From Tolypothrix carrinoi HA7290-LM1 (GTDB lineage: Bacteria > Cyanobacteriota > Cyanobacteriia > Cyanobacteriales > Nostocaceae), in contig JAHHIK010000009.1 of the NCBI GenBank assembly GCA_019358935.1, positions 44,707 to 108,706 of the forward strand: 64,000 nt of DNA, read 5' to 3'. A program made the position numbers and the translations under genes. Shown in pieces: positions 1-55,503 of this stretch. Every line of letters begins with the position of its first letter. Within the stretch, counting starts at the first letter, position 1. The notes below the pieces were generated by a model, which worked only from the letters and a program-made list of their open reading frames with translations, searched no databases and was not told where the DNA came from.

Positions 1-904
1 ACTTGAGTTCACCTTCAAGTTGGATTAGTGCTACGAGTATTTGTTTGAGTTTAACGACGCTTACAGCTTCGACTTCTTTTTTGAGGAAGTACAGCCTTTT
101 GGGGTTGCTGAGTTCGGCGAGTGTTGAGATTTTATTGTCGGGCAGTTTTTCTTCTACCCCAGCTTTCGTAATTAACCAAGTGCGGAAGTAACTTATGAGG
201 GTGGCGACTATTTTAAGAGGGTGTTCATCCTCAACTAGTAGGCGGTGGAGTATTTGTCCTGCTGTATCGGCTCTACTATTTTTAATGGCGTGGGCGAGTT
301 CGGTACAACTGATATTGTTGTTGCTTATAAGTGACTGAACATCTCCTAACTCCAATTTTTGCCCCTGAGCGTAGATAGCAAGTTTGGTTAATTCGCTATC
401 GAGCCGTGCAGTATTGTTTCCAATTGCCTCCACTAGATAGGTAGTGGCGGCGGGGACAAGCTCTAAGGAATGGGTTTTTACTGCTGCTTGAATTAGTTTT
501 TCTATTCCTTGTTTATCCCAACTGGGGATGAGAGGAAATTCTTCAACTTCGGCGTGTTTGAATAGTGCTTTGACGACTTTGCTTCTACCATCAGGTTTCC
601 AAAGTGAGGTAATTAAAAGTAGGTTTGGAGTAGGTACTTTGTCAAGATTTTTTAAGAGTGAGGAAATTATTTCATCCGAACATTTATTGAATATTGTCCC
701 ATCTGTAATGTGGACAATTTTTCCACCTTCCCCCAAGGGAACTGTCATTACCTCTGTTATTGCCTGGGGTATTGCTGCTGCTTTGTTATCAACTCGAATG
801 TAGTTGAAGATTTCCCACTCTTGGGTAGTAAAATCTTTAATTAATTCTTCCACCCTTTTTGATATTGAGTGGATATCTTCCCCATAAATTAATTTTACTG
901 GCAT
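1..904 (-). CDS. holA: DNA polymerase III subunit delta (3' end runs off the window; absent from the ORF track)
   Basis: Manual translation from the ATG at 904 gives MPVKLIYGEDIHSISKRVEELIKDFTTQEWEIFNY...EVMTVPFGEGGKIV, later ...NPKRLYFLKKEV. This matches the cyanobacterial HolA pattern. Confidence 0.88.
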   Translation of the reverse strand, partial: MPVKLIYGEDIHSISKRVEELIKDFTTQEWEIFNYIRVDNKAAAIPQAITEVMTVPLGEGGKIVHITDGTIFNKCSDEIISSLLKNLDKVPTPNLLLITSLWKPDGRSKVVKALFKHAEVEEFPLIPSWDKQGIEKLIQAAVKTHSLELVPAATTYLVEAIGNNTARLDSELTKLAIYAQGQKLELGDVQSLISNNNISCTELAHAIKNSRADTAGQILHRLLVEDEHPLKIVATLISYFRTWLITKAGVEEKLPDNKISTLAELSNPKRLYFLKKEVEAVSVVKLKQILVALIQLEGELK

Positions 905-1382: not shown

Positions 1383-2168
1383 TTATAGGATTCCCTTGTT
1401 GCCAACCGATTGTATATCAACTTTACTTTGGTTGACATCTTGAACTGAATTTATAACTTGCTGAGTACCGTGATATTTGCGCCAGCCATCTAAGTCGCTT
1501 AGGTATTGCAACAGCGCAGATGGACCAGCTACCTGATATAGCGAGATGGCTGATTCCCACTCCCGAAAATTTGCTTTTTTATCGTTGAGAATTTTGATAA
1601 TGGCACTGGGAAGTTTGTATCGAGTGCCACTATTTAAATTAATGTGCGGTGTGGTTTCTAGAAGTAGTTCCTGTTCGGATAGGGGTACACCGCCATCTTT
1701 AAGATTTATCTCGTTTAGTTGGGCAGTTATACCTGAGAGAGGTAGGGTTTGTTGGGTTATACTGGCGACTAATATTTTCTGTTTAGTCTTCCTAGATTTG
1801 ACAACTACAGGGTTTTTGGGAATGGGTATTAAGTAGCTTTGTGGAAGTTCAAGTGATAGCTGTTCTTTGAGTCGGTAGGGTAAGGTTTGTTTTTGGGCTG
1901 GGGTAATCTCGTAGGAGAAATTGGCTGTTTGTCTGGGGTCGCCAAACTTTCGGAGTTTGATTCTTACCTTGTAAGATATACTTCCTTGAATGAGTGTATG
2001 ACTGTCAATAACTGTAGGTATACTATGTTCCCACCATACAATTTCAACAACTCGGTCGCCGTCTAATGAGTTATAGACATTGGTTAATCTGGCGTAGGGC
2101 TTTACTTCAAGGAAGTTATTTAACCACTTGCGTTGTTTTTTGTTGAGCAGTGATAATTTTTTAGCCAT
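1383..2168 (-). CDS. hypothetical protein with a possible clamp-binding motif (QLSLEL)
   Basis: 261-aa ORF starting 2 nt after the polB stop; family not recognised. Confidence 0.7.
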   Translation of the reverse strand: MAKKLSLLNKKQRKWLNNFLEVKPYARLTNVYNSLDGDRVVEIVWWEHSIPTVIDSHTLIQGSISYKVRIKLRKFGDPRQTANFSYEITPAQKQTLPYRLKEQLSLELPQSYLIPIPKNPVVVKSRKTKQKILVASITQQTLPLSGITAQLNEINLKDGGVPLSEQELLLETTPHINLNSGTRYKLPSAIIKILNDKKANFREWESAISLYQVAGPSALLQYLSDLDGWRKYHGTQQVINSVQDVNQSKVDIQSVGNKGIL

Positions 2169-2170
2169 TG

Positions 2171-3985
2171 TTAGAAAAGAGTCAGTTGTTTGCCGCTGTT
2201 TAGCATTTTAGGGTTTGCAATTTGCAGGATTTCTACTCGTTTTTGGGCGAGTAATTTGATGTAATACTGTGATGAATACTTTTGTAGGCTGTTGATGTCT
2301 GTTACACCCAGAATGCTGTAATAATAAGTCACGACATCTCCGGGTTTTCCAAGTTTGAGAAGTTCTTTTTCACCCTCTTTAATTCTGCGAGTAATGCACA
2401 AGTTTTCTTTTGGATATTCCCTTGATAAAATATGGGATAAAATGTGGGTGTAATACTCTTCTGCTGCTGATATATCTTGGATTAGGAGAGTTAAATACTG
2501 AATGGAAAACTCTTTCTCTAGTTGCGAGCGATCGCGATTGCGCCAGTTGCCTTTGGTGATGATTTTCCCGTGCGGAAGCCATAGGAGGTAGTTTTTGGTT
2601 CCTCTTTCCGGGATAAACATCGCCGAAGCGATAAACTCTAGTTTGACGGTTATCCCTTCAGGCAGTTGAGATTGAAGTAAACAATGTATCTCTTCTGGAT
2701 TGGGGTGGGTGAAAAACACCCCGTCAGTGTCAACTTCCACGGGAGTACCCCCTTCATAAGTGATAATTTCAATCATGAGTTTGAGTACCTTTCTGCTGTA
2801 GGCTGTCACCAAAGCCGCAGCCTCCATATCGTTGAAGGCGAGTTCAGATGTGCCGAAGAAGCCAAATTCGGAGTTAGCTAGAACTTTGACAGATTCTCTC
2901 TTCTCCTTGGCAGCAATATTTCCACTAGATGCAAGTTGTTCCAGTCTAGATTTTTCATTCACCAGATATTGCAGGATACTTAGCCCAATACGTTTTGTAT
3001 CTTTGATTGAGCAAATACCCTTGTCTAGCATTGCCCAAGGGTGCATTGAGCTAATATCTGCATATCCGACCTTTCTATACAGTCCAGGGATAGAGTAGGC
3101 CATGCCTCCCTGGAATTTGTACTTGCGATCGGGTTTGGGTTTATAGCCTGGATAATGATGCTCAAATATTCGCTCCCACTTGGTACCATTACCAGCAAGT
3201 GCTAGCTGCTGGAGATTCATTTCCGGTACAATTAGTGCTTCGTAATAGTATGACGGTACAAGTCTGTTAGCAATTAACTGCGTGTCTTCGAGGTCGTACA
3301 CAAGATACTCTTTTAGCCGTTTCCATCCCTTACTGTTGGGGCCATCTTTCCAACAAGCGAGGATTTCCTCATAAGGAAGAACCAGTCTGGTGTTTTGGCG
3401 CAGTCCCATGTCCAATACAGCTTTTTTGAGCGACCTTCCGTTGGTTAGCTTTTTGGTGACAAAATCCCACCTGAGAACGCAGATGTAAACGTCTACATGC
3501 TGGCTATTTTGGACAAATACCTCCCGAATTTTTAGCGGTTCGCCTCGTACCTTGGCAGTTCGGATAGTCCGAGATTTGGATGCAATTTTAAATGGGTGTT
3601 TTATACCATGCAGGTTGGATCTAGTGATAATGAATGGAATGTCAAATTCCATCCCGTTGTAGGTGAAAATTACATCTGGATTTTTCTTCTTTAAGTGATT
3701 GAAAAAGTCTGTGATAGTTTGTGCTTCTGAAATATTCATAAAAACAGTAGGATATCCCATTTCATCCATACACCCGATGGCATAAATGCGATTTTCAATT
3801 GGGTCTATACCTGCTGTTTCAATATCGACAAATAACTGTGAAAGTTCCTGGTATGGCTTGAGTTGTACTTGCGGTTGCCAGGGTTGAATTGGAGTGGGGT
3901 CTTTCCAATAAATGTCTAGTTTATCTTCATCGACAATGATTATACCCCTAGATTTTTTGACAAAATCCCTGTGGTTATAACTCAT
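2171..3985 (-). CDS. family B DNA polymerase with 3'-5' exonuclease domain
   Basis: Exo motifs VDIET, YNGMEFDIPF and YDLEDT; polymerase motifs DISSMHP, KVLANSEFG and VDTDG; C-terminal QLTLF. Confidence 0.92.
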   Translation of the reverse strand: MSYNHRDFVKKSRGIIIVDEDKLDIYWKDPTPIQPWQPQVQLKPYQELSQLFVDIETAGIDPIENRIYAIGCMDEMGYPTVFMNISEAQTITDFFNHLKKKNPDVIFTYNGMEFDIPFIITRSNLHGIKHPFKIASKSRTIRTAKVRGEPLKIREVFVQNSQHVDVYICVLRWDFVTKKLTNGRSLKKAVLDMGLRQNTRLVLPYEEILACWKDGPNSKGWKRLKEYLVYDLEDTQLIANRLVPSYYYEALIVPEMNLQQLALAGNGTKWERIFEHHYPGYKPKPDRKYKFQGGMAYSIPGLYRKVGYADISSMHPWAMLDKGICSIKDTKRIGLSILQYLVNEKSRLEQLASSGNIAAKEKRESVKVLANSEFGFFGTSELAFNDMEAAALVTAYSRKVLKLMIEIITYEGGTPVEVDTDGVFFTHPNPEEIHCLLQSQLPEGITVKLEFIASAMFIPERGTKNYLLWLPHGKIITKGNWRNRDRSQLEKEFSIQYLTLLIQDISAAEEYYTHILSHILSREYPKENLCITRRIKEGEKELLKLGKPGDVVTYYYSILGVTDINSLQKYSSQYYIKLLAQKRVEILQIANPKMLNSGKQLTLF

Positions 3986-4098
3986 GAACTAGAGACTTTT
4001 CTAATTGTGAATGAAAGATTTTTCGCGTTCAGGATATATTGCAATACTTGTGGGTACTGACTGAGGAAGTATTCTATATCTTTAATACTGGTAATCAT
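3982..4098 (-). CDS. 38-aa small protein translationally coupled to polB
   Basis: MITSIKDIEYFLSQYPQVLQYILNAKNLSFTIRKVSSS*; its stop overlaps the polB start as ATGA. Confidence 0.4.
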   Translation of the reverse strand: MITSIKDIEYFLSQYPQVLQYILNAKNLSFTIRKVSSS

Positions 4099-4582
4099 TA
4101 ACTCTTTATTTTATTCGCACTAGTTAATAATTGGATACTCTAGATTAGAATACTTCAGATTAAAAATAATTTTAATATCAGAATACACCCCATGATTTTA
4201 AATTTTACTACGTAACAAGAGGAAACTAAACTTATAAACTTATCTAGACTATTTATATTTATAAGATTATGTTTATTCATACTAACTTTAATTAAGATTA
4301 TTACCTTTATGGCGTATGCTTGTGCCGTGGTTAACCTCGGTCGCAAAATATTTATAATATTTTTATTAAAGAAAAACCAATTGCTTATCCAATACATATA
4401 CTGATGCTATTGGTTTAATTTTAATATATTTACTGTTTTGCTATTATTATCGTGAAAAAATACGTACTTGAATGGGAAAAGAGAAAAATTATGTTTAAAT
4501 GTTAAGCCCAAAAATAAAAAAAATTAATTAAAAAGTTGAAACCTCTTTTAATTGCCAAAACTAAAAGAGGTTTTAACTTATG

Positions 4583-4813
4583 CTATGCTTGTTGGCTGTT
4601 GTTCAAGTATGCTTGAAATCGTTGGACTATGGCTTTGATTTCTTGTGCAGCTAGTACAGCAGCGAAAGTATCATTTGCTAGTTCTTGGTTAATAAACATC
4701 CCATGTTCATTTTTAGGACTTTCTTCGATTTGTCCTCCTGCATCATTTTCAATTTGTTCTCCTAATTCTTCTAAAGTTTTTAATTGTTGTTGAAATAATT
4801 TGCGATATTCCAT
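4583..4813 (-). CDS. hypothetical helical protein
   Basis: 76-aa ORF in the run, followed by a hairpin at about 4533-4579. Confidence 0.65.
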   Translation of the reverse strand: MEYRKLFQQQLKTLEELGEQIENDAGGQIEESPKNEHGMFINQELANDTFAAVLAAQEIKAIVQRFQAYLNNSQQA

Positions 4814-4921
4814 GTATTTAACAAAGAAATTGTAAGTTGTATAATATTAAGAGCGTTAGCTATAGCTGCGGTTTTATTTGAACTAATAACTAACTCTCCC
4901 TAATCAGGGAGAGTTGCTATT

Positions 4922-6211
4922 CTAAGCTTGTTGCAGTTGTGTTTGTTGCAACTTTTGAATAACTTCCACCCACACTAAGGCTTTCTTTCCATTAATGGGT
5001 GTAAGCTTTTGCCAGTGTTCCTGTAACTGTGTCTGCGATAAGTGGGGTAACTGTTCTTTTGCCCAGTTAATTGCGTCTTGGGCAGTTTTCCAATCCTTCC
5101 AGGGTTGAGTTTGGGAACTATTCTTTGTGGTTTGAACTATCTCGATAATGGTAGCTTCCATCCACAAGTGCGCGTTTTCATCTCGCATAAGATTTTGACG
5201 TGCCATCAGGAGTGCGATCGCACTGTGGATGTGGTTAACGCTCCACGATTTGGAGATTGTTGTAAGGGAATTCCAGGTTTCCTCTTCGAGTTGGGTAATA
5301 TTTCTGCCATCGGGGTTGGTTTTGCAGACAAGCAGGTCTTTTAGAAAGCTGACAAGGCTTGTGTGGATGGTGATTGGGTGCTTGCCGCATTCAATCCAAT
5401 TTTGGAGAATGCCTAAATTGCCTGTAATTTGTCTAAGAGTGATATTTTCAAAGAAAGTGACTAAATCGTATTCGGGGATAATACCCGATAGTTCCCATAC
5501 CCAATTGGGAGTGATTTCTCCTTCTCCCAGCAAGGTTAGTTGGTCTAAAAGTTTGAGTGAGTCGCGCAAGTGTCCCTTGTTTGTTTTGGCGACGGCTGTT
5601 AATGCTAGCGGATTGATATTTATACCTTCCTGGTGGGCAACTTTTTCTAGGTAATTTACAACTAGTGAGAGGGTAACCCTTCTAAAATCGAACTTTTGGC
5701 AGCGGGAGGTAATAGTTTCTGGGACTTTGTGTACCTCGGTGGTACAGAAGATGAACACAACATGGGCTGGTGGTTGTTCTAATGTTTTGAGTAATGCTTG
5801 CCACGATTGGTGGGAAAGGGCATGACATTCATCTATTATTAGGATTTTGTACCTACCCTCGATTGGTTTAAGTTGAAGGTTGGATACCATCTCGCGGATG
5901 TTATCTACACCAGAGTGGCTGGCGGCATCAAGTTCGGTTACATCGAGAGATGAGGAGTGGGAAATAGTCTGACAAGAATTGCACTCGCCACAGGGTTCGG
6001 TTGTTGGTTCCTCTGTTGATTGACAGTTGAGAGATTTGGCGAGAATGCGCGCTGTAGTCGTTTTACCCGTACCCTTGGGACCGGTAAATAGATAGGCTGG
6101 GGCAGTCTTTTTGAGCAAGATCGCATTATTCAGGGTGCGTACAATATGTTCTTGTCCGACTATTTGTGAAAGTTGCTGGGGGCGATACTTGAGATGCAGT
6201 GGTGTGTACAT
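4922..6211 (-). CDS. dnaX: DNA polymerase III subunit gamma/tau (clamp loader ATPase)
   Basis: LKYRPQ, Walker A GPKGTGKT, zinc module PCGECNSC, ELDAAS, IIDECH and SRC motif; likely start is the ATG at 6211 (MYTPL). Confidence 0.95.
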   Translation of the reverse strand: MYTPLHLKYRPQQLSQIVGQEHIVRTLNNAILLKKTAPAYLFTGPKGTGKTTTARILAKSLNCQSTEEPTTEPCGECNSCQTISHSSSLDVTELDAASHSGVDNIREMVSNLQLKPIEGRYKILIIDECHALSHQSWQALLKTLEQPPAHVVFIFCTTEVHKVPETITSRCQKFDFRRVTLSLVVNYLEKVAHQEGININPLALTAVAKTNKGHLRDSLKLLDQLTLLGEGEITPNWVWELSGIIPEYDLVTFFENITLRQITGNLGILQNWIECGKHPITIHTSLVSFLKDLLVCKTNPDGRNITQLEEETWNSLTTISKSWSVNHIHSAIALLMARQNLMRDENAHLWMEATIIEIVQTTKNSSQTQPWKDWKTAQDAINWAKEQLPHLSQTQLQEHWQKLTPINGKKALVWVEVIQKLQQTQLQQA

Positions 6212-6281
6212 ATTTGAGAAAGTCAAATTTTCTAAATGGATTTGTGTATAGCCAGTAAAAATGCTGGCTATACTTGTTGGT

Positions 6282-7598
6282 CTATAAAGCTGCTGTTTCT
6301 ACTGGTTTTGCTTCCTGCTTGCGCTTGCGGGATTTTGACTTGCTGGTGCTAGCTGTATCAGACGGGGATGTTTCTGTTATGCTGGTTGTTTCATTAGATA
6401 CCTCTTGTTCGGAAATATCTACTGTTTCACTTTCTGGCTTGGAAGTGGTGGCAAGATTTTCTGGTTTATCGAAATCTTGGACGTCTACGGGCATAATTAG
6501 TGTTAATTGGTCGAGCAATCCACCTACAGGAGAAATGATGACTGGTTGGAGGGGTTTGTTAAATCTGAATAGGATTTCATCGGTTGAAATGTGTTTGAGT
6601 GCTTCTTGTAGATAGCTACTGTTTACCCCAATACCGATGTTTTCCCCTATACTGGTTTGGGTTTTCATAAGTAAAGAATCTACCGCATCGCCAATATCAG
6701 TATTACCTGTCATTAATGTTGCTTGTTGATCGTTCACCTCCCACAGGATTTTAACAATCTTGTGTTTTTTCTCTGCGAAATGGCTGATTCTTTTGAGAAT
6801 AATTTCCATACCCTTGCGCTCTACAATTAGCTCGTTGGCAAAGCTTTTAGGTATAAGGTTGTTGATACGGGGAAATTCTCCTTCTAACAACCTGGATGTC
6901 AGTTCGGCATTTGGCAAGATAAACTGGATGGTGTTGTTTGCGACTTTGAGCGTACAACTGTTATTTTCGGCTGTTGTCGCCAAGATTTTTGCCAACTCGG
7001 TGAGGCTTCTTCTAGGGACTGTGAATGATAGTGGTTCGTAGTTTCGCTCCAGCTTGGAAGATACAAACGCAAGGCGGTGTCCGTCGGTGCTGGCGCAACT
7101 CCAATTTTCACCTTGTAACTGAAAATGTACGCCTGTGAGGATGAGTTTGGTTTCGTCTGCGCTGCTGCAATACAGACAAGCTTCCAAGGCAGCTTGTAGC
7201 TTCTTGCTAGGAATGCTGATTTCGGTAGGGTTTTCTGTTTGTGGGATGCTTGGAAAATCTTCTGGATTTCCTCCTATAATACGACATTTTCCCGTGCTGT
7301 GGCTGATAACACAGGCGCGATCGCTTACTTCAATGTCCAGTTCGCCGCTTCCTAGATTGTTAACTGTATCGACTAGTAGTTTGGCGTTTAAAGCGACTAC
7401 ACCTGAGCGTATAATATTAATTATCGCTGTAGTTTTGATACTTACATTCAGGTCAGTACCAATGACGGTAAGTCTGCCCGAATCCGAGGCTTCGATTAAC
7501 AAACTTCCGAGTATAGGGTCTACTGGTTTTGTGGATATGCCGTTTTTGGCTGTTTCTAAGAGTTCCGCCAGTACAGATTGAGTAATTATTAGTTTCAT
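6282..7598 (-). CDS. dnaN: DNA polymerase III beta sliding clamp with an extended low-complexity C-tail
   Basis: PILGSLLIEA, GTDL, ILTGV, ASTDGHRLA, SRLLEGEFP and LIMPV motifs. Confidence 0.95.
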   Translation of the reverse strand: MKLIITQSVLAELLETAKNGISTKPVDPILGSLLIEASDSGRLTVIGTDLNVSIKTTAIINIIRSGVVALNAKLLVDTVNNLGSGELDIEVSDRACVISHSTGKCRIIGGNPEDFPSIPQTENPTEISIPSKKLQAALEACLYCSSADETKLILTGVHFQLQGENWSCASTDGHRLAFVSSKLERNYEPLSFTVPRRSLTELAKILATTAENNSCTLKVANNTIQFILPNAELTSRLLEGEFPRINNLIPKSFANELIVERKGMEIILKRISHFAEKKHKIVKILWEVNDQQATLMTGNTDIGDAVDSLLMKTQTSIGENIGIGVNSSYLQEALKHISTDEILFRFNKPLQPVIISPVGGLLDQLTLIMPVDVQDFDKPENLATTSKPESETVDISEQEVSNETTSITETSPSDTASTSKSKSRKRKQEAKPVETAAL

Positions 7599-7670
7599 GG
7601 TGTATTTTGCCAGGGCATGATTTGTAAAGTGCTAGCGTGTTAACTAGCACCCTTGAAGTTTTACAAATGG

Positions 7671-8582
7671 TTAGTAAGGCAATTTGTCTAATTCGGATGA
7701 ATTAGCTGGTGAGATTCCGACTGTTTCTACTGCACTTGGTAGTAGTAAATTATTATCTAGACCTGGAATTGCCATAGGTTTGTTGGGTTCGAGGGATTCC
7801 CATACGTAATTCTTAACGTCAGCTTTAAACCCTACGAAGTAGTTTTGCCATGTTTCTAGTGTTGGGGTTTCGTGTTCGACTACCTTGCAAGCAAAACTTT
7901 TTTGTTTGGTTCCAGCTTGTTCTCTAGCTGTTTTGAAGCAAAAGATTCCTAGAGAATAAAACAAGGTATTTTTTTGTTTGGCTGGGATACCATTAATAAT
8001 TGAATGGCAAGTATTTAATTCTTTGCAGAATTCTTGCCAATGAGTGGCAAAGGATGCTTGATTTGCGCCCATTGCCTTATAAGTTAGGGGAATTTGATGC
8101 AGGGGTTGATTATTTTTGTCTAGCAGGAAGACTTGAAAATACTGTAGGTTGCCAATATTTTCGTCTTCTTTCATTTCAAGAGTGTACTTTCCTAAAATTA
8201 TTGTTGACGAGTTTGGTTCTTGGGATTGCTTTCTATCAAATCCCAACACTGGCGATTTGGGACACACCAACATTCTGGGATTTTGGATAAGAATACCCTT
8301 TTCTTCACCACCGCTAGACTCAAACGTGTAGGTTATGAGTTGCTTGTCGTCAAAGTCCATCCAACCTGCATTTGCCATTTGGTCTACACTTATGAAATAC
8401 CCGCAGGTTTGTGAGGTAGTACCGCGAAGTGCTTGGATGCGAGGGAGTCGTGCATTTGGGTCTAAAAACTCAGGCGAACAAAATTCATCTTTTTCTGTTA
8501 CTTGAGGAATTGTTGTTGAATGAGTTTCGGCAGTATTACTTTTTGTTTGAGTTTCATTTAAATTGGCTTGAGTTTTAGCCAT
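7671..8582 (-). CDS. conserved cyanobacterial plasmid protein (DUF5895-like)
   Basis: 303 aa, DEFCSPEFLDPNARLPRIQALRG; the family name is from memory of similar proteins. Confidence 0.6.
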   Translation of the reverse strand: MAKTQANLNETQTKSNTAETHSTTIPQVTEKDEFCSPEFLDPNARLPRIQALRGTTSQTCGYFISVDQMANAGWMDFDDKQLITYTFESSGGEEKGILIQNPRMLVCPKSPVLGFDRKQSQEPNSSTIILGKYTLEMKEDENIGNLQYFQVFLLDKNNQPLHQIPLTYKAMGANQASFATHWQEFCKELNTCHSIINGIPAKQKNTLFYSLGIFCFKTAREQAGTKQKSFACKVVEHETPTLETWQNYFVGFKADVKNYVWESLEPNKPMAIPGLDNNLLLPSAVETVGISPANSSELDKLPY

Positions 8583-8696
8583 ATTTATCCTTATTGAACT
8601 AGTTCATATACCCTGTGCATTTGCATATGCCGTGATAAAAAATAAAGTTGCCTGTTATAAACAAGTAACTTAAAAGTTAATCTTGGAAGTAATTAT

Positions 8697-8957
8697 TTAA
8701 GTAATCTCTTCTAAGTCGTATGAATATTCTCCTTCTAAATACTCATTTTTAGTCTTAATAAGTTTGTGATACGTTTTTTCTAAATTGCTGATTAATTCTT
8801 GAAGAACTAGCGTGGTTTCAGTAGTGAAAGTTAGACTCACTGTTGTGCCAATTGAATTATGTATTGCGACTGTTTGTTCATCTGGACTACCGTACACTGT
8901 GACGCTACTTTCTTTTCCAGGAATAAATCTGTAGGATGTGATTGTCTGAATTGTCAT
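8697..8957 (-). CDS. hypothetical protein
   Basis: 86-aa ORF co-oriented in the run. Confidence 0.55.
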   Translation of the reverse strand: MTIQTITSYRFIPGKESSVTVYGSPDEQTVAIHNSIGTTVSLTFTTETTLVLQELISNLEKTYHKLIKTKNEYLEGEYSYDLEEIT

Positions 8958-9185
8958 TTTACTTCTTGGCTATTTTGGTTTTTTTTGCAACATATTGTTG
9001 ACTAAATTAGTGATATTACTTAGCTTTAAACTAGCTAGTTTGCACTTGCTTACAGCATCTTCTAACTTCCAACTCTTGCTATTCAAGTATTTTGTAGCTA
9101 ATGTGCTTCTCTCATATGGGAAATAGGTATGTTATATACCTATTCCTATTTTCGTCAACCTGCCAGTATACAATGCGTTTATAAT

Positions 9186-9324
9186 AGACCTGTCCGCAAA
9201 TAAAGCTCAAAATAGCTGAAACCCTTACATAGCTTACTTTTTAGCTCAGGGAAGAGAGAAAACTCTAAAACCCTCTCCAGAGCTAGGTTTCAGGCAAATA
9301 AAGTTATCATTTCCGGATAAGTCT
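9186..9324. mobile_element. 139-bp MITE-like element
   Basis: Imperfect terminal inverted repeats AGACCTGTCCGCAAAT / ATTTCCGGATAAGTCT, flanked on both sides by AAT (9183-9185 and 9325-9327). Confidence 0.6.
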
Positions 9325-9330
9325 AATACA

Positions 9331-10425
9331 TTAAGGCTTGTATATTTTGATGATGCGGGTGGCTACGCTTGTGGGGTTATTTGATTGCAAAAAGGCATCT
9401 TTGGGTAGAGACTCATCATATAAATTCCAATTTTCTAGCCATTCTTTAAAATCCTTATATTTATTGTTGAAGAATACTGACTCTGGAACTATTGCTATCA
9501 GGATTCCTCCTGAATGAATTAACTTCCACGCATGGTAAATATGTTCAATTAATTGAGAGAAGGGAGGGTTCATAATGATATGAGAGTATAAATTTTCGGC
9601 TGTACAACCTAGAAAATCTCTACCTACTAAGTTGAACCCTTTCAATTCGAGGATTCTACGTAGAGTTGGGTTAATCTCTACTACTTCTAAATTGACTTGA
9701 TGATATTTATTGAGTATGGATTCGGCAATACAGCCAGAGCCAGCGCTGGGTTCAAGTATGCGAGAGCTTTCATTAATTTCTGCTAACTGAATTAGGCGAT
9801 CGCAAACAGGAGGTGGGCTGGGGAAGAAGTCTCCAGACTTCATTCCAATGATTTTTAACTCCAGCCGATTTAGCTCTTGTTGAGTAGTATTAACCTTATC
9901 AGGTTTAACAACTTTCTGAATTTCAGCTATCGCAGACATAATCTCGCCTGCGGTGCAAATACTTGCGCGGTAGAGAGACTTTATCCTATCTTGATAATAC
10001 TCATTGGAGAGAATTTCTTCTACCTCTTCGAGAGTCCTTGCTCTTTGAGAGATTTTGTACAGTGCTTCTGCTTGGGACTTTTGGGAGATGCCCCGCAGCA
10101 CTTCGGGGGTATTTCCCACAAACCACATTTGGGCTATAGCAAGTAACCAAGATTGGATTGTTTGTAGTTCTACTCCTTCGGCGATAATTGATTGAGCGAT
10201 TGTTTTGCGGCGTTTGGTTGCCCGCTGTTTGTTTATGGCAGGATTGAGCTTATTGTCAATTGATTGTTGCATCGAGGTGGCAAGTTCTTGCAGTTTCGCG
10301 GCTTGCTTCGGGTTGGGAGTGTTGAGATTGAAGGTGTAGATTTCGCCGGGGGTTGTATGTTCTGGGATTATTTTAAAGAGCGATAGTTGCATTTTCTTGT
10401 AGATCCTTGAGCGCGCATTTGACAA
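9331..10425 (-). CDS. SAM-dependent amino-DNA methyltransferase (N6-adenine type)
   Basis: ILEPSAGSG (motif I) and IIMNPPF (motif IV); probable start at the ATG at 10392 (MQLSLF). Confidence 0.85.
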   Translation of the reverse strand: MSNARSRIYKKMQLSLFKIIPEHTTPGEIYTFNLNTPNPKQAAKLQELATSMQQSIDNKLNPAINKQRATKRRKTIAQSIIAEGVELQTIQSWLLAIAQMWFVGNTPEVLRGISQKSQAEALYKISQRARTLEEVEEILSNEYYQDRIKSLYRASICTAGEIMSAIAEIQKVVKPDKVNTTQQELNRLELKIIGMKSGDFFPSPPPVCDRLIQLAEINESSRILEPSAGSGCIAESILNKYHQVNLEVVEINPTLRRILELKGFNLVGRDFLGCTAENLYSHIIMNPPFSQLIEHIYHAWKLIHSGGILIAIVPESVFFNNKYKDFKEWLENWNLYDESLPKDAFLQSNNPTSVATRIIKIYKP

Positions 10426-10693
10426 TGAGTGATTCTTCTGTACCCCAGACTTTTATTTCCCAAGGAGTATTTAGGCGTTCGCTTGGGCGAATTACAGCTT
10501 TAGTGCATTTGTCCTTACGGGTTATCCATACAAGGAAGCTTTCGGCTTTTTCCTTAGAGTTAAACCCAAAGTAGGTAGTTTTTCTTACTCCCGTAGGGCT
10601 GGTAATGGTGGCGACTCGCGGAGATAAAATGTTAAATGTCCAACCATCGGGGGTAAGTTCAACTTTTTTGACTTTAATTTCTGGGGAGTTCAT
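10373..10693 (-). CDS. hypothetical protein
   Basis: 106-aa ORF with ATGA overlap with the upstream gene. Confidence 0.7.
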   Translation of the reverse strand: MNSPEIKVKKVELTPDGWTFNILSPRVATITSPTGVRKTTYFGFNSKEKAESFLVWITRKDKCTKAVIRPSERLNTPWEIKVWGTEESLIVKCALKDLQENATIAL

Positions 10694-11364
10694 AATTCAA
10701 CTTCAGGAATGGCATCTAGATATTCTTTAGTTGTAATTTCCCTATTCATCCACTTGTGATGGATGATTTCTAAACTTTCTTGCTCAACTTCTTGTTGAAT
10801 TTCCTCTACCGCAAACTGTGTAATAATAGACAACAGTCTTTCTTTGAAAGCTATGTGTTTTACTTCTGAATAGGTGAATTGGTAAATATCCGCTGTGTTG
10901 ACGAACAAGTAGATTAGATTAATTTTTTCCGCTGGTAATTGGGTTTTCTCATAGAGTAAGAATAATCTTAGTTGAGTATGAAATGAATTCTCTAAAGACT
11001 GAAAATTTGATGGTTTTTGGATAGTCCAGTCCAGTGCAATTACCTGTTGTTCCTGATAAATGATTAAGTCATAATTAGCGTGGACTAACTGTGACTTGTA
11101 GAGATACTGCGCTTCGGCATTCCATTGTTTGTTACCAGGAATTTCTAGAAATGGTAGCAGCACTTTTACCCACTTGCCTAATTGAGGATATGCCTTTAAG
11201 AATGGTTCTACAGGTAGTCCTAGCCCAATCTGCTGCATGATGATGTGAAACTTGCCACCAAGTTTTTCACCTTGGCTAATTGGTGATGTACGTATGGTGT
11301 TTTTACCTGAACTTTTACTTTCACATTCAAGCTTTTCTAACAGACTTGGATTAAATCTGTCCAT
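10690..11364 (-). CDS. PD-(D/E)XK nuclease-like protein, possibly inactive
   Basis: GKFHIIMQQ...YDLII...LDWT...QLRLF resembles the PD-(D/E)XK_1 family, but has DWT in place of DWK. Confidence 0.6.
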   Translation of the reverse strand: MDRFNPSLLEKLECESKSSGKNTIRTSPISQGEKLGGKFHIIMQQIGLGLPVEPFLKAYPQLGKWVKVLLPFLEIPGNKQWNAEAQYLYKSQLVHANYDLIIYQEQQVIALDWTIQKPSNFQSLENSFHTQLRLFLLYEKTQLPAEKINLIYLFVNTADIYQFTYSEVKHIAFKERLLSIITQFAVEEIQQEVEQESLEIIHHKWMNREITTKEYLDAIPEVEL

Positions 11365-11428
11365 AATAAAAATCTGTCCTAAAAAATACTCAGGACAGAT
11401 ATGTGTTAACTGTTGTGGTTGTTTTTAT

Positions 11429-12262
11429 TTAGACAGTGTGATATTTATCTAAGTTTTTAACTGTGGTTTGGATACTGCGACAAGACATAGAAATTAGGTT
11501 GAAGTAGCTAACAAACTTGCTTATTTTTCCTATTAGGGTTAACTCTAATAGGTATTGGGATGCAATGGCTGATGTCATGCGGTTTATGAATAGAGTTTGG
11601 TGATTAAGTATTTGAATTTCCGCACACGAGAGGTTGTTGCTGCTAAGTTCTTCAGGCTTTGGGATTAGTAATTCGGGATGTACCAGCGCTGGGGATGGTA
11701 GGTGTTTCCAGAATGCGGGTTTATCTGGGTTATTGGAGGCGGTTACAATATTGAAATCAGCGTGGGTTCCTAATATAACTTGTCCTGATAGTGAACTGTT
11801 ACCGCAGTCTAGCCAGAAGAAGTCAGCTTGTTCGCGCGGGCTGTTATATTTTAAACACGAGTGAATTTGTGCCCTGGCGGCAGCATTGTCCACGCAGCCG
11901 ATGATAATTGTGAGGGTATTCCACTTGTAATTTTCTACATGGTTAGGGGAAAACCAATCTGAAATTGCTGTTACTACTACCCCATATTTGGCACTGCACC
12001 TGGTGGCTAGACATTGTGCTTTGGGAAAACTTATCTCAGATGGTTGGTAATTTTGGCGTGCGATATTTTTAGGTTCGACGCTATCTCCATCGATGATGGT
12101 GAGGTTAGCCTTTTTCTCGTTTTGCTGTAGCTGTACTATGAGGCGGCAAACATCTTCGGCAAGATACCCCCCTGTGCCACCAGCCCCTACTAAAATAAAA
12201 TTTACTTTGCGGTGGGGACGGGGGAGAACGGGTAAGAAAAATTCTGTGTCGATTTGTATCAT
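11429..12262 (-). CDS. ThiF/E1-like adenylyltransferase (PRTRC type)
   Basis: VGAGGTGG, DGDSVEPKNIARQ, GCVDN, LDCGN and LSCAE motifs. Confidence 0.92.
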   Translation of the reverse strand: MIQIDTEFFLPVLPRPHRKVNFILVGAGGTGGYLAEDVCRLIVQLQQNEKKANLTIIDGDSVEPKNIARQNYQPSEISFPKAQCLATRCSAKYGVVVTAISDWFSPNHVENYKWNTLTIIIGCVDNAAARAQIHSCLKYNSPREQADFFWLDCGNSSLSGQVILGTHADFNIVTASNNPDKPAFWKHLPSPALVHPELLIPKPEELSSNNLSCAEIQILNHQTLFINRMTSAIASQYLLELTLIGKISKFVSYFNLISMSCRSIQTTVKNLDKYHTV

Positions 12263-12831
12263 AACTCAAATATCAAATTAGGGTCAATTTCAATGAAGTG
12301 GTTGTATGCCCCTACGCGGGTGTAGATGGTAGGCTTTTTGTCAACTGTGCCGATAATTCCAAATATGCGGAACTTTCCTGACTCCTCTTGGTTGTCTTGG
12401 TTGCTGGGGATTGCTCTCATACAGCCGTGTGAGTGGATTTCAACCAATGTTTGGCTGTATCTGAGGTTTGTATTTTCCAGCGAGCGCACATGAGTTGAGG
12501 ATGCTTCTTGTGCTGGTGTGTGACACCACCATTGGCTATTTGCAACCCCCAAATAAAAAAGGATTTCTTGATGGGGATTAATCCGCGCAGCATTGATGAT
12601 GTCTGCAATTATGCTTGCTGGCACTTTTGGTACATTTAACTTGAAATAGGGTTGTATTTGTGCCAATCCTATTATGTGGGTATGGGCGATTTGCAAGCAG
12701 ATTTCTAATTCTGGGCGGTGCGATCGCGCATATACTCCATCAGATGCAAGCCAGTATTCCTGAAGTTTTTGGCTCTTTGGGGGAAGGTTGTGACTGACAG
12801 CGTAGTTATAGCTGATGAAGAGGTTATTCAT
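12259..12831 (-). CDS. JAB/Mov34 metallopeptidase (PRTRC protein A-like)
   Basis: Intact JAMM motif E...HSH-x7-S-x2-D (HSHGCMRAIPSNQD). Confidence 0.9.
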   Translation of the reverse strand: MNNLFISYNYAVSHNLPPKSQKLQEYWLASDGVYARSHRPELEICLQIAHTHIIGLAQIQPYFKLNVPKVPASIIADIINAARINPHQEILFYLGVANSQWWCHTPAQEASSTHVRSLENTNLRYSQTLVEIHSHGCMRAIPSNQDNQEESGKFRIFGIIGTVDKKPTIYTRVGAYNHFIEIDPNLIFEL

Positions 12832-13540
12832 GTTGGAATAGATACTTGGGTATATCGTTTGGCGTTTTGATTGTTTGATACTCTCTAGCGACTAATTCCT
12901 TTGCTGGGAAGGATTTTGTGGTTCGTAGGCTGATCAACAAGTCGCAGACATTGTGGGGGTGTGATTTTGATTTGTTTTGGCTGAAGTCTTGGTTGAAAGG
13001 GCTGTTCCAGAACAATTTCCAGGTTTTATTGATTGAGTCGGGATTACAAGCAGGTGGGATGTTCCTACCGAAGCAAATTTTATTTGAGTCGTCCCAAATA
13101 TTTGGTAACGGCGCTTTGTATAATTGACAATCCTGCTTGAAGGTTCTTCCTTTAACTGCCCATAAGTAGTAGCTGCTGTTGCATCCAGCGAATATAAATG
13201 CTGGCATGGGAATAGTTATTGTATTGTTTCCTTCTGGAGTTTGTATTGAGACTGAATATTTTTGGGGCGGGTAAAATTGAATAATACCTTCTCCATTTGG
13301 TGTTATTTCCCACCACAGCGTATTGGGAGATAACCATCCTGAATTTACAGTTTTGGCTGTAAACGCTTTTTCCACAGCTTCAGGCGATAGAAATTTATGC
13401 TGTGTTTTATTACCTTCTTTTTCTATCAGTACAAACTGTCCTTTGAGAATGATTAGATGCCCTAAAATTTCCTGCTGTGGAATGTTATTCAGTATGACTT
13501 GAGTGTTTAATCCTGTATTTATATGGCAGCTTGATTCCAT
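12824..13540 (-). CDS. prokaryotic E2 family D protein (PRTRC protein B-like)
   Basis: LYKAPLPNIW...KICFG with the conserved Cys, and FWNSPF; lies directly upstream of the JAB gene in the module. Confidence 0.85.
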   Translation of the reverse strand: MESSCHINTGLNTQVILNNIPQQEILGHLIILKGQFVLIEKEGNKTQHKFLSPEAVEKAFTAKTVNSGWLSPNTLWWEITPNGEGIIQFYPPQKYSVSIQTPEGNNTITIPMPAFIFAGCNSSYYLWAVKGRTFKQDCQLYKAPLPNIWDDSNKICFGRNIPPACNPDSINKTWKLFWNSPFNQDFSQNKSKSHPHNVCDLLISLRTTKSFPAKELVAREYQTIKTPNDIPKYLFQHE

Positions 13541-14241
13541 ATTTTGACTACCTTCTTTCGATTGGCTATTGATACTTCTATCCAGTCTGATAACTCTTCA
13601 AATTGGTTTAATATGATGCTGGCTTCTTGCCATTTATCGGCGATCAGTAATACATTTTCTTCACTCCACTCCCACCAATATCCAGTTTCATAGGTTGTGT
13701 CTAACCAAATATTGCCTGTTGAATAGTCGAGAACACTCAGGCTAGTTACTAAATATTTGATTGGTGATTTTAACTTGTTACAGATTTTTACAAGTTTTTG
13801 AAAGTCTATATTTTCCACATCTGCTATATAATCAGGTTTAAACCCAAATTCTTCTTCCCAATATTCAAGGCTATACCCACTACCCATAACCGAGAGTAAG
13901 AATTTTTCGCTTGCCTCTAAATCTTCAAGGTTTTCATTCCACCATTCAAGTCTTTGTGGTAATATAGCTATACTTTCATACTCTCCGTATGTTTCTATTT
14001 CATCAATAAATTCAACTGGAAACAAGTTTGAATTTACTAGGTGAATAAATTCAATTTCTCTATCTGAATATATGCAATCAGGATGTGTTTTTCTGTTTAT
14101 AGGTGTTTTTGACTCATACCATTCTTCTGCAAATAGTTTTTGATATAAACTGAGTAAACTTGCTTTTTGAGAGAAGTTTTCCAGATAGGTGATTGCTTCT
14201 GTACAGGTGATGGGTATTTTAAATAGTTCTAGTGATATCAT
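13519..14241 (-). CDS. acidic hypothetical protein in the PRTRC module (protein F position)
   Basis: 240 aa, Trp/Glu-rich, overlaps the E2 gene; the assignment is by synteny only. Confidence 0.6.
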   Translation of the reverse strand: MISLELFKIPITCTEAITYLENFSQKASLLSLYQKLFAEEWYESKTPINRKTHPDCIYSDREIEFIHLVNSNLFPVEFIDEIETYGEYESIAILPQRLEWWNENLEDLEASEKFLLSVMGSGYSLEYWEEEFGFKPDYIADVENIDFQKLVKICNKLKSPIKYLVTSLSVLDYSTGNIWLDTTYETGYWWEWSEENVLLIADKWQEASIILNQFEELSDWIEVSIANRKKVVKIWNQAAI

Positions 14242-14285
14242 GATGAACGATAACTGCCGCTAGTGTGGATAGCGGCGTTGCTTAA

Positions 14286-14708
14286 CTACAATACGGGATA
14301 ATTGCTGGATGCAGGGGGTTGTTGTCCGAGGGACTTAAAAACCTTATCTGTATATGTTTCCCAGTTTTCCCCCATTTTGATTGTCTGATTTATTTGTGAG
14401 CGCATACTAATTAAAACTTCTAAAGTTAGTTGATTTTTTATTTCTAGAAGCTTCAATTCCCAAGCTAATACAAACGCTGGGTTAATTTGTTCAGATGCTA
14501 ATTTGAGTTCTGTGATGCAATTACCCTTGGTTCCAGCGCGTTTAACAAGTCTTATTTCGGTTGTTTCTCCTGTAGTTGTACGAGTAATTTCGGCATTGGC
14601 ATATTCTGGAAAATAAGTGCTGATTGCCAGTCTTAGCTTGTTGTCATCTATTGCTGTATTTGGTGGGATAGGAACTTGCTGCCCTTCGATAATAGCGATA
14701 TAATTCAT
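14286..14708 (-). CDS. ubiquitin-like protein (PRTRC protein C-like) with a C-terminal extension
   Basis: TYFPEYANAEI...LVKRAGTKG at residues 31-62 is the protein C signature; 78 further residues follow. Confidence 0.75.
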   Translation of the reverse strand: MNYIAIIEGQQVPIPPNTAIDDNKLRLAISTYFPEYANAEITRTTTGETTEIRLVKRAGTKGNCITELKLASEQINPAFVLAWELKLLEIKNQLTLEVLISMRSQINQTIKMGENWETYTDKVFKSLGQQPPASSNYPVL

Positions 14709-14713
14709 GGCGA

Positions 14714-15163
14714 TTAGAATAGTGAAAGTTGTTGTTTATCCGACTCGTTTGGATGGAAGTTATTAGATAAATCTCGTTTTTGTACTTGTTTACGCTCCTG
14801 AGATTGATTAATATGATTAAGAGCAATCTTTCTTTTTTCGGCGGCTTCAATAATTTTAGGTAAGGCTACCTCTAATTCTTGAATACTTTCTTGAATGATG
14901 GTTTGTTGGGTTATTTCCTGATAGCTAGCATTTTTGATAATGGGAGGTGCATTTTTAATACCAATGGAGAAAATAGCCTGTTGCTCGTCTGGATAAATTT
15001 GGATGGTTATTAGATAGACTTTAGGGTTTGATATGCTGTTGCTGTTATCTTCATAATCATCTGTTTCATCACTATCTTCTAAGCTATTGTTGTTACTAGA
15101 ATTCAAATCACTACTGTAACTAGCTTTGGAGTTAGTTACACTTTCTTGCTCTTGATTGTTCAT
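14714..15163 (-). CDS. hypothetical protein (PRTRC protein E position) ending in QLSLF
   Basis: Likely start is the ATG at 15163, overlapping the prim-pol stop as ATGA; acidic N-terminus and C-terminal QQLSLF. Confidence 0.7.
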   Translation of the reverse strand: MNNQEQESVTNSKASYSSDLNSSNNNSLEDSDETDDYEDNSNSISNPKVYLITIQIYPDEQQAIFSIGIKNAPPIIKNASYQEITQQTIIQESIQELEVALPKIIEAAEKRKIALNHINQSQERKQVQKRDLSNNFHPNESDKQQLSLF

Positions 15164-16128
15164 GAGAGGTTGGCAAATTTTGCAAGGGTACGAATGGTAA
15201 TGCCTGTTCTGCGGAAAGACTGCCATTTGTAGGCACATTCTCCTGGTTTGTATTTGGGTGATAGTTGACTCCATATGTCCCAGGCTTTGAGTAAGGTAGG
15301 GCTGACTGATTTAAGTGCCATTCCAACTTGAATCCAAGTTGTATAGTCAGAAGCGAACCTGGGGTGTATGACTTCTAAGAATGTAAGTGCAGCTTGAATA
15401 TTGGTTTCAATATCGGGGTATAAGTTTACGCATCTGTTTGCCTGATGTGTGCGGTTAGATTTTTCTTGGAGAGAACTCGATGGAGAGTGAATTACCCTTT
15501 CCTTCTCCTGCTTTAATAGCATTTGGGCTACTACCCAATCTGGTGCGTAAGCAACTTGTTTTTCTTGCGGACTGCAACCGGGAACCCACCGATAGTATCT
15601 TCCTTCTGGGTGGTAGGAAGGAGGTAAAACTGACGCATGATTTTTACCTCTAAACTCCAGATTTGAGATTTTGCTGGACTTGATTGATGATTTTTCAGTG
15701 ATTAAGTATAGAAGTTGGCGCTTGTATTCACCTCCAGAGGTGAAGGCGACAGTCGCCGGGAGGTATGCAAGTGCGCTTTCGTATAACTTTTGGGGAGAAA
15801 TTTTGTCTATTTCACCCTCTTCTAGTTTTTTGTTGAGGATTAGAATTTGACCCCAGGCGCGGAATCCGTCGCAGTCGATAGCGACGATGTGTCCTTCGGG
15901 TTGGTTATCGCCGCAGACAATAGCAACCCCAGTGGCAGGTGTATACCTCTTCCCCGACCAAATTTTGCATCTAGTACGAATGAGTTCGGCTTGTAGCTGT
16001 TTGGGTGAGTAAGTTTTATACTGCCATTCTTTTCCCCCCAGAGGTCGCTTGCCAAATGTGGGTATAACCCTCCATCTGTCGGGTAGTGTTTCCAGGGACG
16101 AGATAATTTTACCTGCCTGGGCGTGCAT
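15160..16128 (-). CDS. bifunctional primase-polymerase with a PriCT-2 domain
   Basis: GKRP, GVAIVCG, VAIDCD, SVLPPSYHP; PriCT-2 YTTWIQVGMALK...WDIWSQLSPKY...CAYKWQSF. Confidence 0.88.
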   Translation of the reverse strand: MHAQAGKIISSLETLPDRWRVIPTFGKRPLGGKEWQYKTYSPKQLQAELIRTRCKIWSGKRYTPATGVAIVCGDNQPEGHIVAIDCDGFRAWGQILILNKKLEEGEIDKISPQKLYESALAYLPATVAFTSGGEYKRQLLYLITEKSSIKSSKISNLEFRGKNHASVLPPSYHPEGRYYRWVPGCSPQEKQVAYAPDWVVAQMLLKQEKERVIHSPSSSLQEKSNRTHQANRCVNLYPDIETNIQAALTFLEVIHPRFASDYTTWIQVGMALKSVSPTLLKAWDIWSQLSPKYKPGECAYKWQSFRRTGITIRTLAKFANLS

Positions 16129-30506: not shown

Positions 30507-30583
30507 ATTTACTAAAAATTGGTATGAAGAAATATACTTTTGGATTGCATATTTCTCCTTGTGGTGTTAAAGGTCGGTGAGTG

Positions 30584-32164: not shown

Positions 32165-32244
32165 AATCTTTACTACTTTTCAACAACTAGGTTTTCTGGT
32201 GTAGGTTGAGTATTATTTGTTTCTACTGGTTTGGGAGGGGCATC

Positions 32245-32982
32245 TCAAAATAAGCGTTTTCCACCCATAAGCATGAGCTTTTCAACTAATTTCATCGATA
32301 CCCCGGTGTTGGTTGCAGCGATGGTGAGTTCTTCACCAGTGCGTCGCAACTCGACTAGTTTGGTTAATCTTTCCCACAGTGGGGTATTGCTGTTTATCCA
32401 CTGTTTGTCAAGTGCAACCTGCATTCCTTTGGCGATATATTTGCTATCAGATACGGCAGTGTAATCAGATGAAGGTTTTTCTGGTTCCCGGTTATTGCTT
32501 GAGTCACCTATAATTTCTAGTTGGCTGTATTCGGGTTTTCCACTGCCTGGTATGATTTGGAAATGATAAGATTTTTTATTACCTCCAGATTCAGTAATTA
32601 CTGTCAGGTGCGAACCATAATTAGCTTGTGGCAATCCAGGTATTTTGACTGTTTCGATACGGCGGAGATGAATAAGTCCTGCTCCAGTTCCTTCGGACGA
32701 ACATTTTCCCAATCCTTCCAAACAGCCATCTACGTCAATTACAAATTTGGAGGGGTCATCCAACCAGATTTTTTTAATAACTTCCCCGGTGCGGTAAAAC
32801 GAAATTGATACTCCATGTCCGTTCCAAACCTTGACGGTTTGTAGTTGGGCGGTTTCTCCCGATACCATGTATGCTTCTATTTGACGGACAATACCTGCTG
32901 TCGCACTTTGTATAGGTAGTACAGGCAGCGCGATCGCCCAAGATAAAAGTAAGCTGAAACTGAATAAATATTTAGCTACCAT
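32245..32982 (-). CDS. T4SS outer-membrane core protein (VirB9-like)
   Basis: Signal peptide, IKKIWLDDPS; adjacent to the VirB10-like gene. Confidence 0.6.
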   Translation of the reverse strand: MVAKYLFSFSLLLSWAIALPVLPIQSATAGIVRQIEAYMVSGETAQLQTVKVWNGHGVSISFYRTGEVIKKIWLDDPSKFVIDVDGCLEGLGKCSSEGTGAGLIHLRRIETVKIPGLPQANYGSHLTVITESGGNKKSYHFQIIPGSGKPEYSQLEIIGDSSNNREPEKPSSDYTAVSDSKYIAKGMQVALDKQWINSNTPLWERLTKLVELRRTGEELTIAATNTGVSMKLVEKLMLMGGKRLF

Positions 32983-32991
32983 GACGGTTTG

Positions 32992-35552: not shown

Positions 35553-35558
35553 TGTTGA

Positions 35559-55487: not shown

Positions 55488-55503
55488 AAAATCTCCTATG
55501 AGT

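Follow-up and report, generated by a model that had tools for sequence, protein, structure and literature searches.

The bacterial type-6d/PRTRC cassette, which is built around a ubiquitin-like protein (Ubl), was predicted in 2006, with Anabaena PCC 7120 and A. variabilis among the entries in the type 6d row (PMC1779556). Where the paper treats type 6d (section 14 and Table 1), it names neither a gene at the position before Ubl, here called E, nor a link to the sliding clamp. Also already known is the class of short motifs that bind the bacterial beta clamp: beside the canonical QL[S/D]LF, a revised motif reads Q-aliphatic-x-[L/M]-[F/L] or Q-aliphatic-x-[L/M]-x-[F/L], in which the Q is helpful and not absolutely needed (PMC13254535). 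In a search of mostly open-access literature, no publication was found that links PRTRC/6d or the plasmid module described here to clamp-binding motifs, or that gives the type-6d/PRTRC Ubl cassette a target. The DNA analysed here is a stretch of 64,000 nucleotides (the window) from the cyanobacterium Tolypothrix carrinoi HA7290-LM1 (assembly GCA_019358935.1, contig JAHHIK010000009.1, positions 44,707 to 108,706). Judged from its genes, it is a conjugative cyanobacterial plasmid of the pCC7120beta type, which brings along a clamp and clamp loader of its own, an intact family-B polymerase and a PRTRC-like (Iyer et al. 2006 type 6d) Ubl cassette. It is likely that these belong to a clamp-centred plasmid DNA-synthesis module in which terminal peptides of the polymerase, a methyltransferase and the E-position protein are working beta-clamp-binding motifs. 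What appears to be new is a control selected by E2 alone, a second hexamer in a 261-aa protein, a fusion of methyltransferase and E, and the existence of cassettes that lack E.

The first-pass annotation had reported clamp-binding motifs in four proteins: the polymerase PolB (QLTLF), protein E (QLSLF), the methyltransferase (MQLSLF) and the 261-aa protein (QLSLEL). Translation of the minus strand bears out all four positions, and all four satisfy the revised consensus and lie inside a single co-directional gene run. Loss of the motifs in homologues had been named as the finding that would speak against them; the homologues examined by and large kept them. The run consists of genes for a helicase, a 247-aa open reading frame (ORF), a Prim-Pol, E, Ubl, F, E2, JAB and E1, two ORFs and the methyltransferase, and continues with an ORF, a DUF5895 protein, dnaN, dnaX, polB, the 261-aa ORF and holA. 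Past the window edge, on contig C9, follow holB, a 220-aa ORF, ssb, parA and parB. Gene order is the same in plasmid pCC7120beta of Nostoc PCC 7120 and its relatives, and conjugation genes sit upstream of the run.

The pattern QL[SDT]LF is found in 4 of the 22 cluster ORFs, one of them the 220-aa ORF just beyond the window, as against 8 of the 6955 remaining ORFs of the genome (Fisher p 4e-8). In terminal position the counts are 4/22 and 3/6955 (Fisher p 3e-9), and both p values are post hoc, as the pattern and the cluster boundaries were picked after seeing the data. It could be argued that all the motifs are chance matches, given that the pentamer QLxLF occurs in 50 of 6977 genome ORFs, in some of them plainly within folded domains. 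Internal matches can be structural: another DnaN in the genome contains a strict QLSLF within its clamp domain. The terminal position, the enrichment and the conservation at 15-40% overall identity make chance a very remote explanation, and the three terminal pentamers (PolB, methyltransferase and E) stay while the remainder of each protein drifts. For these three, the aligned homologues refute chance through conservation; for the 261-aa protein they do not do so fully. As in canonical clamp motifs, the PolB and methyltransferase motifs are terminal and the E motif is both terminal and modelled as disordered. Unlike canonical motifs generally, they are clustered on one plasmid beside its own clamp and loader, and they include a methyltransferase and a protein of a Ubl cassette.

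PolB (2171..3985, minus strand, as are all genes of the run) is a family B DNA polymerase with 3'-5' exonuclease motifs, matching PF03104 and PF13482 over the cut-off and retaining the catalytic motifs DIET, YNGxEFD, DxSSxHP, KxLANSxFG and DTDG. It ends in the putative clamp-binding motif QLTLF, followed directly by the stop codon (2174-2188). QL[ST]LF stands at the end, or within 2 residues of it, in all 8 full-length cyanobacterial plasmid PolBs, down to 39% identity; this count leaves out two copies cut by locus ends and one ORF that stops early. A Deinococcus homologue of 24% identity is without such a tail. That PolB binds a clamp is, on this conservation, very likely. E. coli DNA polymerase II works with the beta clamp and the gamma complex, and is likewise a family-B enzyme with a C-terminal clamp motif that uses a bacterial clamp and loader. 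Unlike polymerase II, the enzyme described here has its polymerase, clamp, loader, primase and SSB genes all on a plasmid, and it falls far under the Pol II equivalog cut-off (37 vs 570 bits).

The E-position protein (14714..15163) most likely starts at ATG 15163, judged from the reading frames, which gives 149 aa and makes the gene overlap the primase stop by 4 bp; loci L004 and L006 show the same arrangement. Its model (pLDDT 77.8, core >90) comprises a disordered acidic N-terminus, a core of three strands and a long helix (residues 51-130) and a disordered tail, closed by the putative clamp-binding motif QLSLF and the stop (14717-14731). As modelled, this is the anatomy of a tether. In 21/21 genome or plasmid loci in which Ubl was found, the upstream ORF ends in Q[LI][STP]LF, in some cases with two extra residues, and in one locus E is split by a transposase gene. 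When 13 E sequences of 15-63% identity are aligned, Q145, L148 and F149 make up three of the six invariant columns. Five plasmids of more distant cyanobacteria carry the E tails QRSLFDLPS, QMALL, QLNLF, QISLF and QITLF.

For the least biased test of the E tail, 83 viral and metagenome loci were selected solely on their E2, through an E2 alignment. Ubl was found in 46 of them, an upstream ORF in 45 and an E core in 37. With M permitted at motif position 2, 24 of the 30 distinct E tails match the consensus, as against none of the control C-termini from the same loci (0/38 for Ubl, 0/55 for F and 0/55 for E2, 0/148 in total). Two of the eight non-E upstream ORFs are short ORFs that end in the motif. 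E belongs to a profile family with 468 representatives, and among the best 150 of these, at least one of which is false (P0105), the revised consensus is found close to the end in 88 vs 21/6977 genome ORFs, and the looser Qxx[LMIF][FLW] in 123 vs 103/6977. The 84 profile matches that were aligned without their tail divide into 28 that end in the pentamer, 1 in the hexamer, 26 in [LMIF][FW] and 29 in none of these. Taken with the alignments, these counts make it very likely that E binds a clamp. In fold searches nothing matched E clearly (best Z 4.7, Foldseek best E 0.27), and a search of the ESM Atlas returned only unnamed clusters under 0.9, from Cyanobacteriota and Chloroflexota.

Downstream of E, the gene content of the cassette is that of operon type 6d of Iyer et al. 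2006. As in type 6d, genes for a Ubl, an alpha-helical protein, an E2-like protein, a JAB protein and an E1-like protein stand in one run (PMC1779556). The Ubl precursor (14286..14708) begins with residues 1-62 (14523-14708), which end in AGTKG, and continues in a 78-residue C-terminal extension that sets it apart from type 6d and PRTRC; K61 and G62 are invariant in 12/12 sequences. A similar KG is found at the end of canonical PRTRC C proteins or within them, and the extension is presumably cut off by the JAB peptidase, going by these sequences. On a Pseudanabaena plasmid (L056, 2350-2810) Ubl and extension form two separate ORFs, and short Ubls occur in loci L027, L028 and L034-L036; split ORFs and short Ubls both fit cleavage after KG. 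Next comes a conserved 240-aa protein at the PRTRC F position (13519..14241), placed by gene order and alignment without a PRTRC_F profile match. It is followed by the E2-like protein of the Prok-E2_D type at the PRTRC B position (12824..13540; PF14460, 137 bits), whose Cys156 is invariant in 13/13 sequences and which has no His among its invariant or nearly invariant columns; an E2 of type 6d is characterised by a conserved Cys with a conserved His downstream of it. The JAB-domain peptidase at the PRTRC A position (12259..12831; PF14464 over cut-off) has the motif HSH...SxxD, and the E1-like ThiF protein (11429..12262; TIGR03736 135.5 bits vs a cut-off of 144.75) has GAGGTG and LSCA. Catalytic motifs are present in PolB, E1, JAB, E2 and the methyltransferase alike.

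The cassette shares the gene order E-C-F-B-A-ThiF with annotated PRTRC cassettes. It differs from PRTRC (TIGR03734-03742) in missing the curated cut-offs (ThiF 135.5/144.75, A 53/102, B 63.5/131 bits), and the PRTRC C, E and F profiles have no match among the window proteins. Also unlike PRTRC, no ParB gene adjoins: the Prim-Pol gene precedes E, and a parB-like gene lies about 19 kb off, past the replisome genes. E resembles PRTRC protein E (TIGR03741 / PF19556) in its position, its similar size and its combination of a small folded core with a low-complexity tail. Canonical PRTRC E tails finish in [SDNA]L[FLW] in 26 of 28 homologues vs 128/6977 genome ORFs. Between E and PRTRC E no significant sequence homology was detected (hhalign probability 1.6-5%, with a shared P-x8-EL stretch; no Pfam PRTRC_E match), and canonical PRTRC E proteins reach at most 12.5 bits on the E-family profile.

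The first-pass annotation had proposed that E is an adaptor bringing the Ubl machinery to the clamp. The linkage half of this idea stands: all 37 E cores in the E2-chosen loci lie directly upstream of Ubl, mostly less than 40 bp apart or overlapping, and a gene at the E position before Ubl is also kept in cassettes of Proteobacteria, Bacteroidota, Deinococcus and Nitrospirota. The idea is weakened by the existence of some cassettes without E. A position so fixed points to shared function, and the gene neighbourhoods favour, by a small measure, a functional link of E with Ubl conjugation, as recruiter or as tagged substrate; that E is specifically the recruiter of the Ubl enzymes is possible and rather less than even. 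A complex prediction of the E core (45-135) with E2, F and Ubl gave a score of 0.09 and a mark of 0.32, for a job unlike the calibration set. Alternatively, E may bind the clamp and have nothing to do with Ubl conjugation, the two sharing only an establishment operon, while Ubl tags phage or host-defence proteins or others. Other bacterial Ubl systems act in phage defence, cassettes without E exist, and plasmid leading regions are known to gather unrelated establishment genes (PMC11541004). Set against the uniform placement of E cores and the recurrence of an E-position gene across four further groups, this alternative appears improbable, at roughly one chance in four.

The methyltransferase (9331..10392) is an orphan amino-methyltransferase with LEPSAGxG and NPPF motifs, and probably a DNA methyltransferase, its homologues being named SAM-dependent DNA methyltransferase in their sources. 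The proposed start at MQLSLF (10375-10392, ATG 10392) is supported by its closest homologues, which are annotated with 353 aa from MQLSLF, and by locus L003, which has no earlier in-frame start. The motif lies in the first 15 residues of 23 of 28 homologues, and of 21/21 among those of at least 340 aa; the five without it are shorter forms. Short methyltransferases on two related plasmids (L008, L051) also lack the N-terminal motif. That the enzyme docks on the clamp through MQLSLF is, in view of these homologues, a well-founded expectation. A single 524-aa database protein, P0169, carries a methyltransferase of the same type fused to an E core and a QLFLFG tail, a fusion that fits E as a clamp-tethering module. 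If true, a clamp-tethered plasmid methyltransferase would shield fresh plasmid DNA directly against restriction, a point of relevance to the delivery of DNA into cyanobacteria.

The 261-aa protein (1383..2168) belongs to an unknown family with 25 homologues and has no Pfam or NCBIfam match. Its model (pLDDT 71.5) shows a beta-sheet domain (1-95), a basic linker and a helical domain (147-233). A fold search gave a best Z of 6.7, to BLIP-like periplasmic proteins and within the usual background, and the ESM Atlas search gave nothing usable. QLSLEL occupies residues 103-108 in the linker (1845-1862) and is conserved in the homologue rows, with Qxx[LI]x[LI] in 24/24 covering rows and the revised hexamer in 12/24. 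A second hexamer-like site overlooked earlier, QQTLPL (residues 139-144; 1737-1754), follows after about 30 residues of basic linker, in a region where residues 129-143 have pLDDT <50. Its Q, L and P are invariant in 25/25 rows, and the revised consensus is met in 7/25; the window's own QQTLPL misses it at position 2. These rows include the window, and one near-identical match was left out. The claim that QLSLEL is a clamp motif survives as to its position, its conservation and its place in the linker, and it is the least certain of the four. QLxLx[LF] is far less specific than the pentamer, with matches in 138/6955 other ORFs (P = 0.017 for a protein of 261 aa). Both sites may instead be structural strands or bind a partner other than the clamp. 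Neither is terminal, conservation is high over the entire protein (mean column identity 58%), hexamer matches are frequent, and site 2 misses the revised consensus in 18/25 rows. Their location in a predicted inter-domain linker argues otherwise, as do the Q and two hydrophobic positions that are kept in all rows while flanking columns vary, and a gene that starts 2 bp after polB. From the alignment, use of one or both linker hexamers for clamp binding is somewhat favoured, and the structural or other-partner explanation is a serious but lesser prospect.

Which clamp these peptides would meet is a separate matter. The plasmid dnaN (6282..7598; TIGR00663 256 bits, over cut-off; PF00712, PF02767 and PF02768) encodes a beta clamp that is 35% identical to the host clamp and keeps the pocket motifs, including TDGHRL, P243 and IMPV. 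Common to both clamps are DETK..LTGVH, TDGHRL, LEG.[FY]P and MPV; the residues of the plasmid pocket are presumably equivalent to those of the E. coli clamp. As the plasmid clamp keeps the host pocket motifs, the peptides cannot be assigned to one clamp by sequence, and they probably fit plasmid and host clamps alike. The earlier suggestion that the element encodes its own clamp interactome is plausible to the extent that conserved motifs stand beside a plasmid clamp, and it is held back by a host-like pocket that makes such binding inseparable from host-clamp binding. Co-occurrence favours the plasmid clamp: 23 of the 28 cyanobacterial plasmids among the dnaN matches listed are also among the ThiF matches listed (60 rows each), and of 6 further cassette plasmids from distant cyanobacteria 5 proved to carry dnaN, with the caution that these plasmids are kin. 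In place of the pocket motif TDGHR, pCC7120beta (L007) and pC052_E (L054) have TNGHK or TNSHK and pCHRO.01 (L008) has TDSHR, and plasmid clamps may be drifting in peptide specificity, as these variants suggest. The plasmid DnaN further has a 70-residue tail after the conserved MP (6282-6490), acidic at first and ending in KSKSRKRK; similar tails occur in relatives, and the host clamp has none. A role of this lysine-containing tail as Ubl acceptor finds no support as a correlate: such a tail is also present on the clamp from a plasmid that has no listed ThiF match.

A working order of events can be proposed. The plasmid loader would place the plasmid clamp on DNA primed by the Prim-Pol, and PolB would dock through QLTLF for processive synthesis. 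The methyltransferase would dock through MQLSLF and methylate new plasmid DNA behind the polymerase, an action that would be most useful when transferred single-stranded DNA becomes double-stranded in a new host; whether docking serves this purpose is, on present sequences, an even bet. E would dock through QLSLF, its folded core connecting the clamp to the cycle of E1, E2, Ubl and JAB, either as recruiter or as tagged substrate. Eukaryotes ubiquitinate PCNA through Rad6-Rad18, and SUMOylate it, at the sliding clamp. By analogy, type-6d/PRTRC cassettes could be a bacterial counterpart of PCNA-directed ubiquitination in which E on the loaded clamp delivers charged E2, although this is a speculative idea that we regard as unlikely. 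A similarly low probability attaches to its further steps, in which Ubl would be put on the clamp or a clamp partner and switch the clamp from host polymerase to PolB and methyltransferase, and to the timing of that switch, which would fall while the incoming plasmid is made double-stranded and protected. The likeness to PCNA tagging, a Ubl cascade localised at a sliding clamp, is by hypothesis only; unlike PCNA tagging, there is no RING/HECT E3 here, and the Ubl and clamp families are unrelated, making this an analogy and not homology. A conserved, putatively clamp-docking tail on the gene beside Ubl suggests a first place of action for the cassette, testable cheaply, and the same cassette is present on a plasmid of the laboratory strain Nostoc PCC 7120.

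The timing was considered through the position of the relaxase gene. A PF03432 search of the window's contig found no relaxase, so leading-region geometry was judged in relatives alone. The relaxase is co-oriented with the cluster in 5/5 complete plasmids, and in three of them the distance downstream is about 6, 10 and 24 kb. By the orientation rule that separates leading from lagging side, the cluster would lie on the leading side of oriT, with oriT placed according to the relaxase. The usual place of a relaxase is the lagging region beside oriT, and genes of the leading region come into play early after entry into the recipient (PMC11541004). An establishment role, comprising second-strand synthesis, anti-restriction methylation and tagging at the clamp, is the preferred reading, at about even odds.

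Several observations weigh against the proposed module as a whole. Many of the loci are close kin, and the conservation counts are not independent. Canonical PRTRC E tails are mostly without Q, and six related cassettes examined in detail have another gene, not E, before Ubl; several of these have a ParB-like gene (by appearance) there, and none of their listed ORFs has a terminal motif. Plasmids of Calothrix PCC 7716 and Gloeothece PCC 7424 have PolB, clamp and loader but no listed ThiF match, which means that the PolB-clamp module is separable from the Ubl cassette. An IS5 element breaks polB in two Trichormus plasmids, and in pCC7120beta IS elements follow thiF, where the match covers residues 10-252 only; these insertions suggest that polB and thiF are dispensable for vegetative maintenance. 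The relaxase is 69 kb downstream in one of the five plasmids and far away in another. Finally, no dnaN was found on the Pseudanabaena cassette plasmid whose E tail is QMALL, nor on four of four non-cyanobacterial PRTRC plasmids.

The last of these observations would also suit a different assignment of the peptides. They may be aimed mainly at the host clamp, with E acting as a small competitor that displaces host polymerases under the control of Ubl tagging; this we consider unlikely. An equally unlikely addition is that the plasmid's own clamp then serves PolB. SocB toxin and phage clamp inhibitors occupy the host clamp pocket and provide a model for such a competitor. E is mostly disordered, has a perfect terminal motif and lacks a catalytic fold, and the host and plasmid pockets are alike, all of which would suit a competitor. 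Against this, the cyanobacterial cassette usually accompanies a plasmid dnaN, and the remaining cassette can be kept where E is missing or interrupted by a transposase gene. Such a loss is in keeping with a dispensable part, and it does not help to choose between toxin and adaptor.

The remaining replication genes of the run fit the synteny with pCC7120beta. The clamp-loader delta subunit holA (2..904; TIGR01128 172 bits, over cut-off) leaves the window edge, and dnaX (4922..6226; TIGR02397 423 bits, over cut-off) encodes a 434-aa clamp-loader ATPase of gamma length, in which an internal QLTLL was set aside as probably structural. The DUF5895 protein (7671..8582; PF19247) has no clamp motif, and its gene stands before dnaN in several related plasmids. 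The Prim-Pol is a PriCT-2 primase-polymerase (15160..16128; PF09250, PF08707), and the DEAD/DEAH helicase (17110..19812; PF00270, PF00271) carries an MrfA-type Zn-binding domain (PF09369). Conjugation genes (28737..34731, minus; PF10412, PF12696 and PF03743 over cut-off) include a type IV coupling protein (28737-30506) and a TrbI-like protein (32992-34731). A 224-aa ORF (10690-11364) has a weak PD-(D/E)XK match (E 0.014), and one homologue is annotated so; its C-terminal end PEV[EQ][LI] is kept, and its internal QLRLF was likewise set aside as probably structural.

The 220-aa ORF of unknown family beyond the window (contig C9 43124-43786, about 900-1600 bp before window position 1) starts with MQQQSLF and ends in QLSLF. 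Both ends, the first with its QQSLF and the last with its QLSLF, have similar counterparts in loci L007, L052 and L054, and it is possible that the protein bridges two pockets or two clamps. On the Calothrix PCC 7716 plasmid (L050, 17474-22669), a 1731-aa protein adjoining the clamp-loader genes ends in QLSLFEL. Elsewhere on C9, the ORFs at 5206-5571 and 35067-36323 resemble what we take to be MobC and a ParM-type actin. A second, distant cassette of the same type lies on contig C24 (47325-51477, L039), where the E-position gene ends in QLTLFGV, and a relaxase match shares that contig. The genome also holds a second dnaN-dnaX-holA set (contig C173, 2952-6923, L040), whose clamp is extended at the N-terminus and shares 52% identity with that of the host. 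Past the conjugation region, the translations of window positions 50200-64000 suggest cargo or an island, with a putative ParE-like toxin-antitoxin gene, a tyrosine recombinase, MsrB, a Uma2 nuclease and putative iron-siderophore uptake genes.

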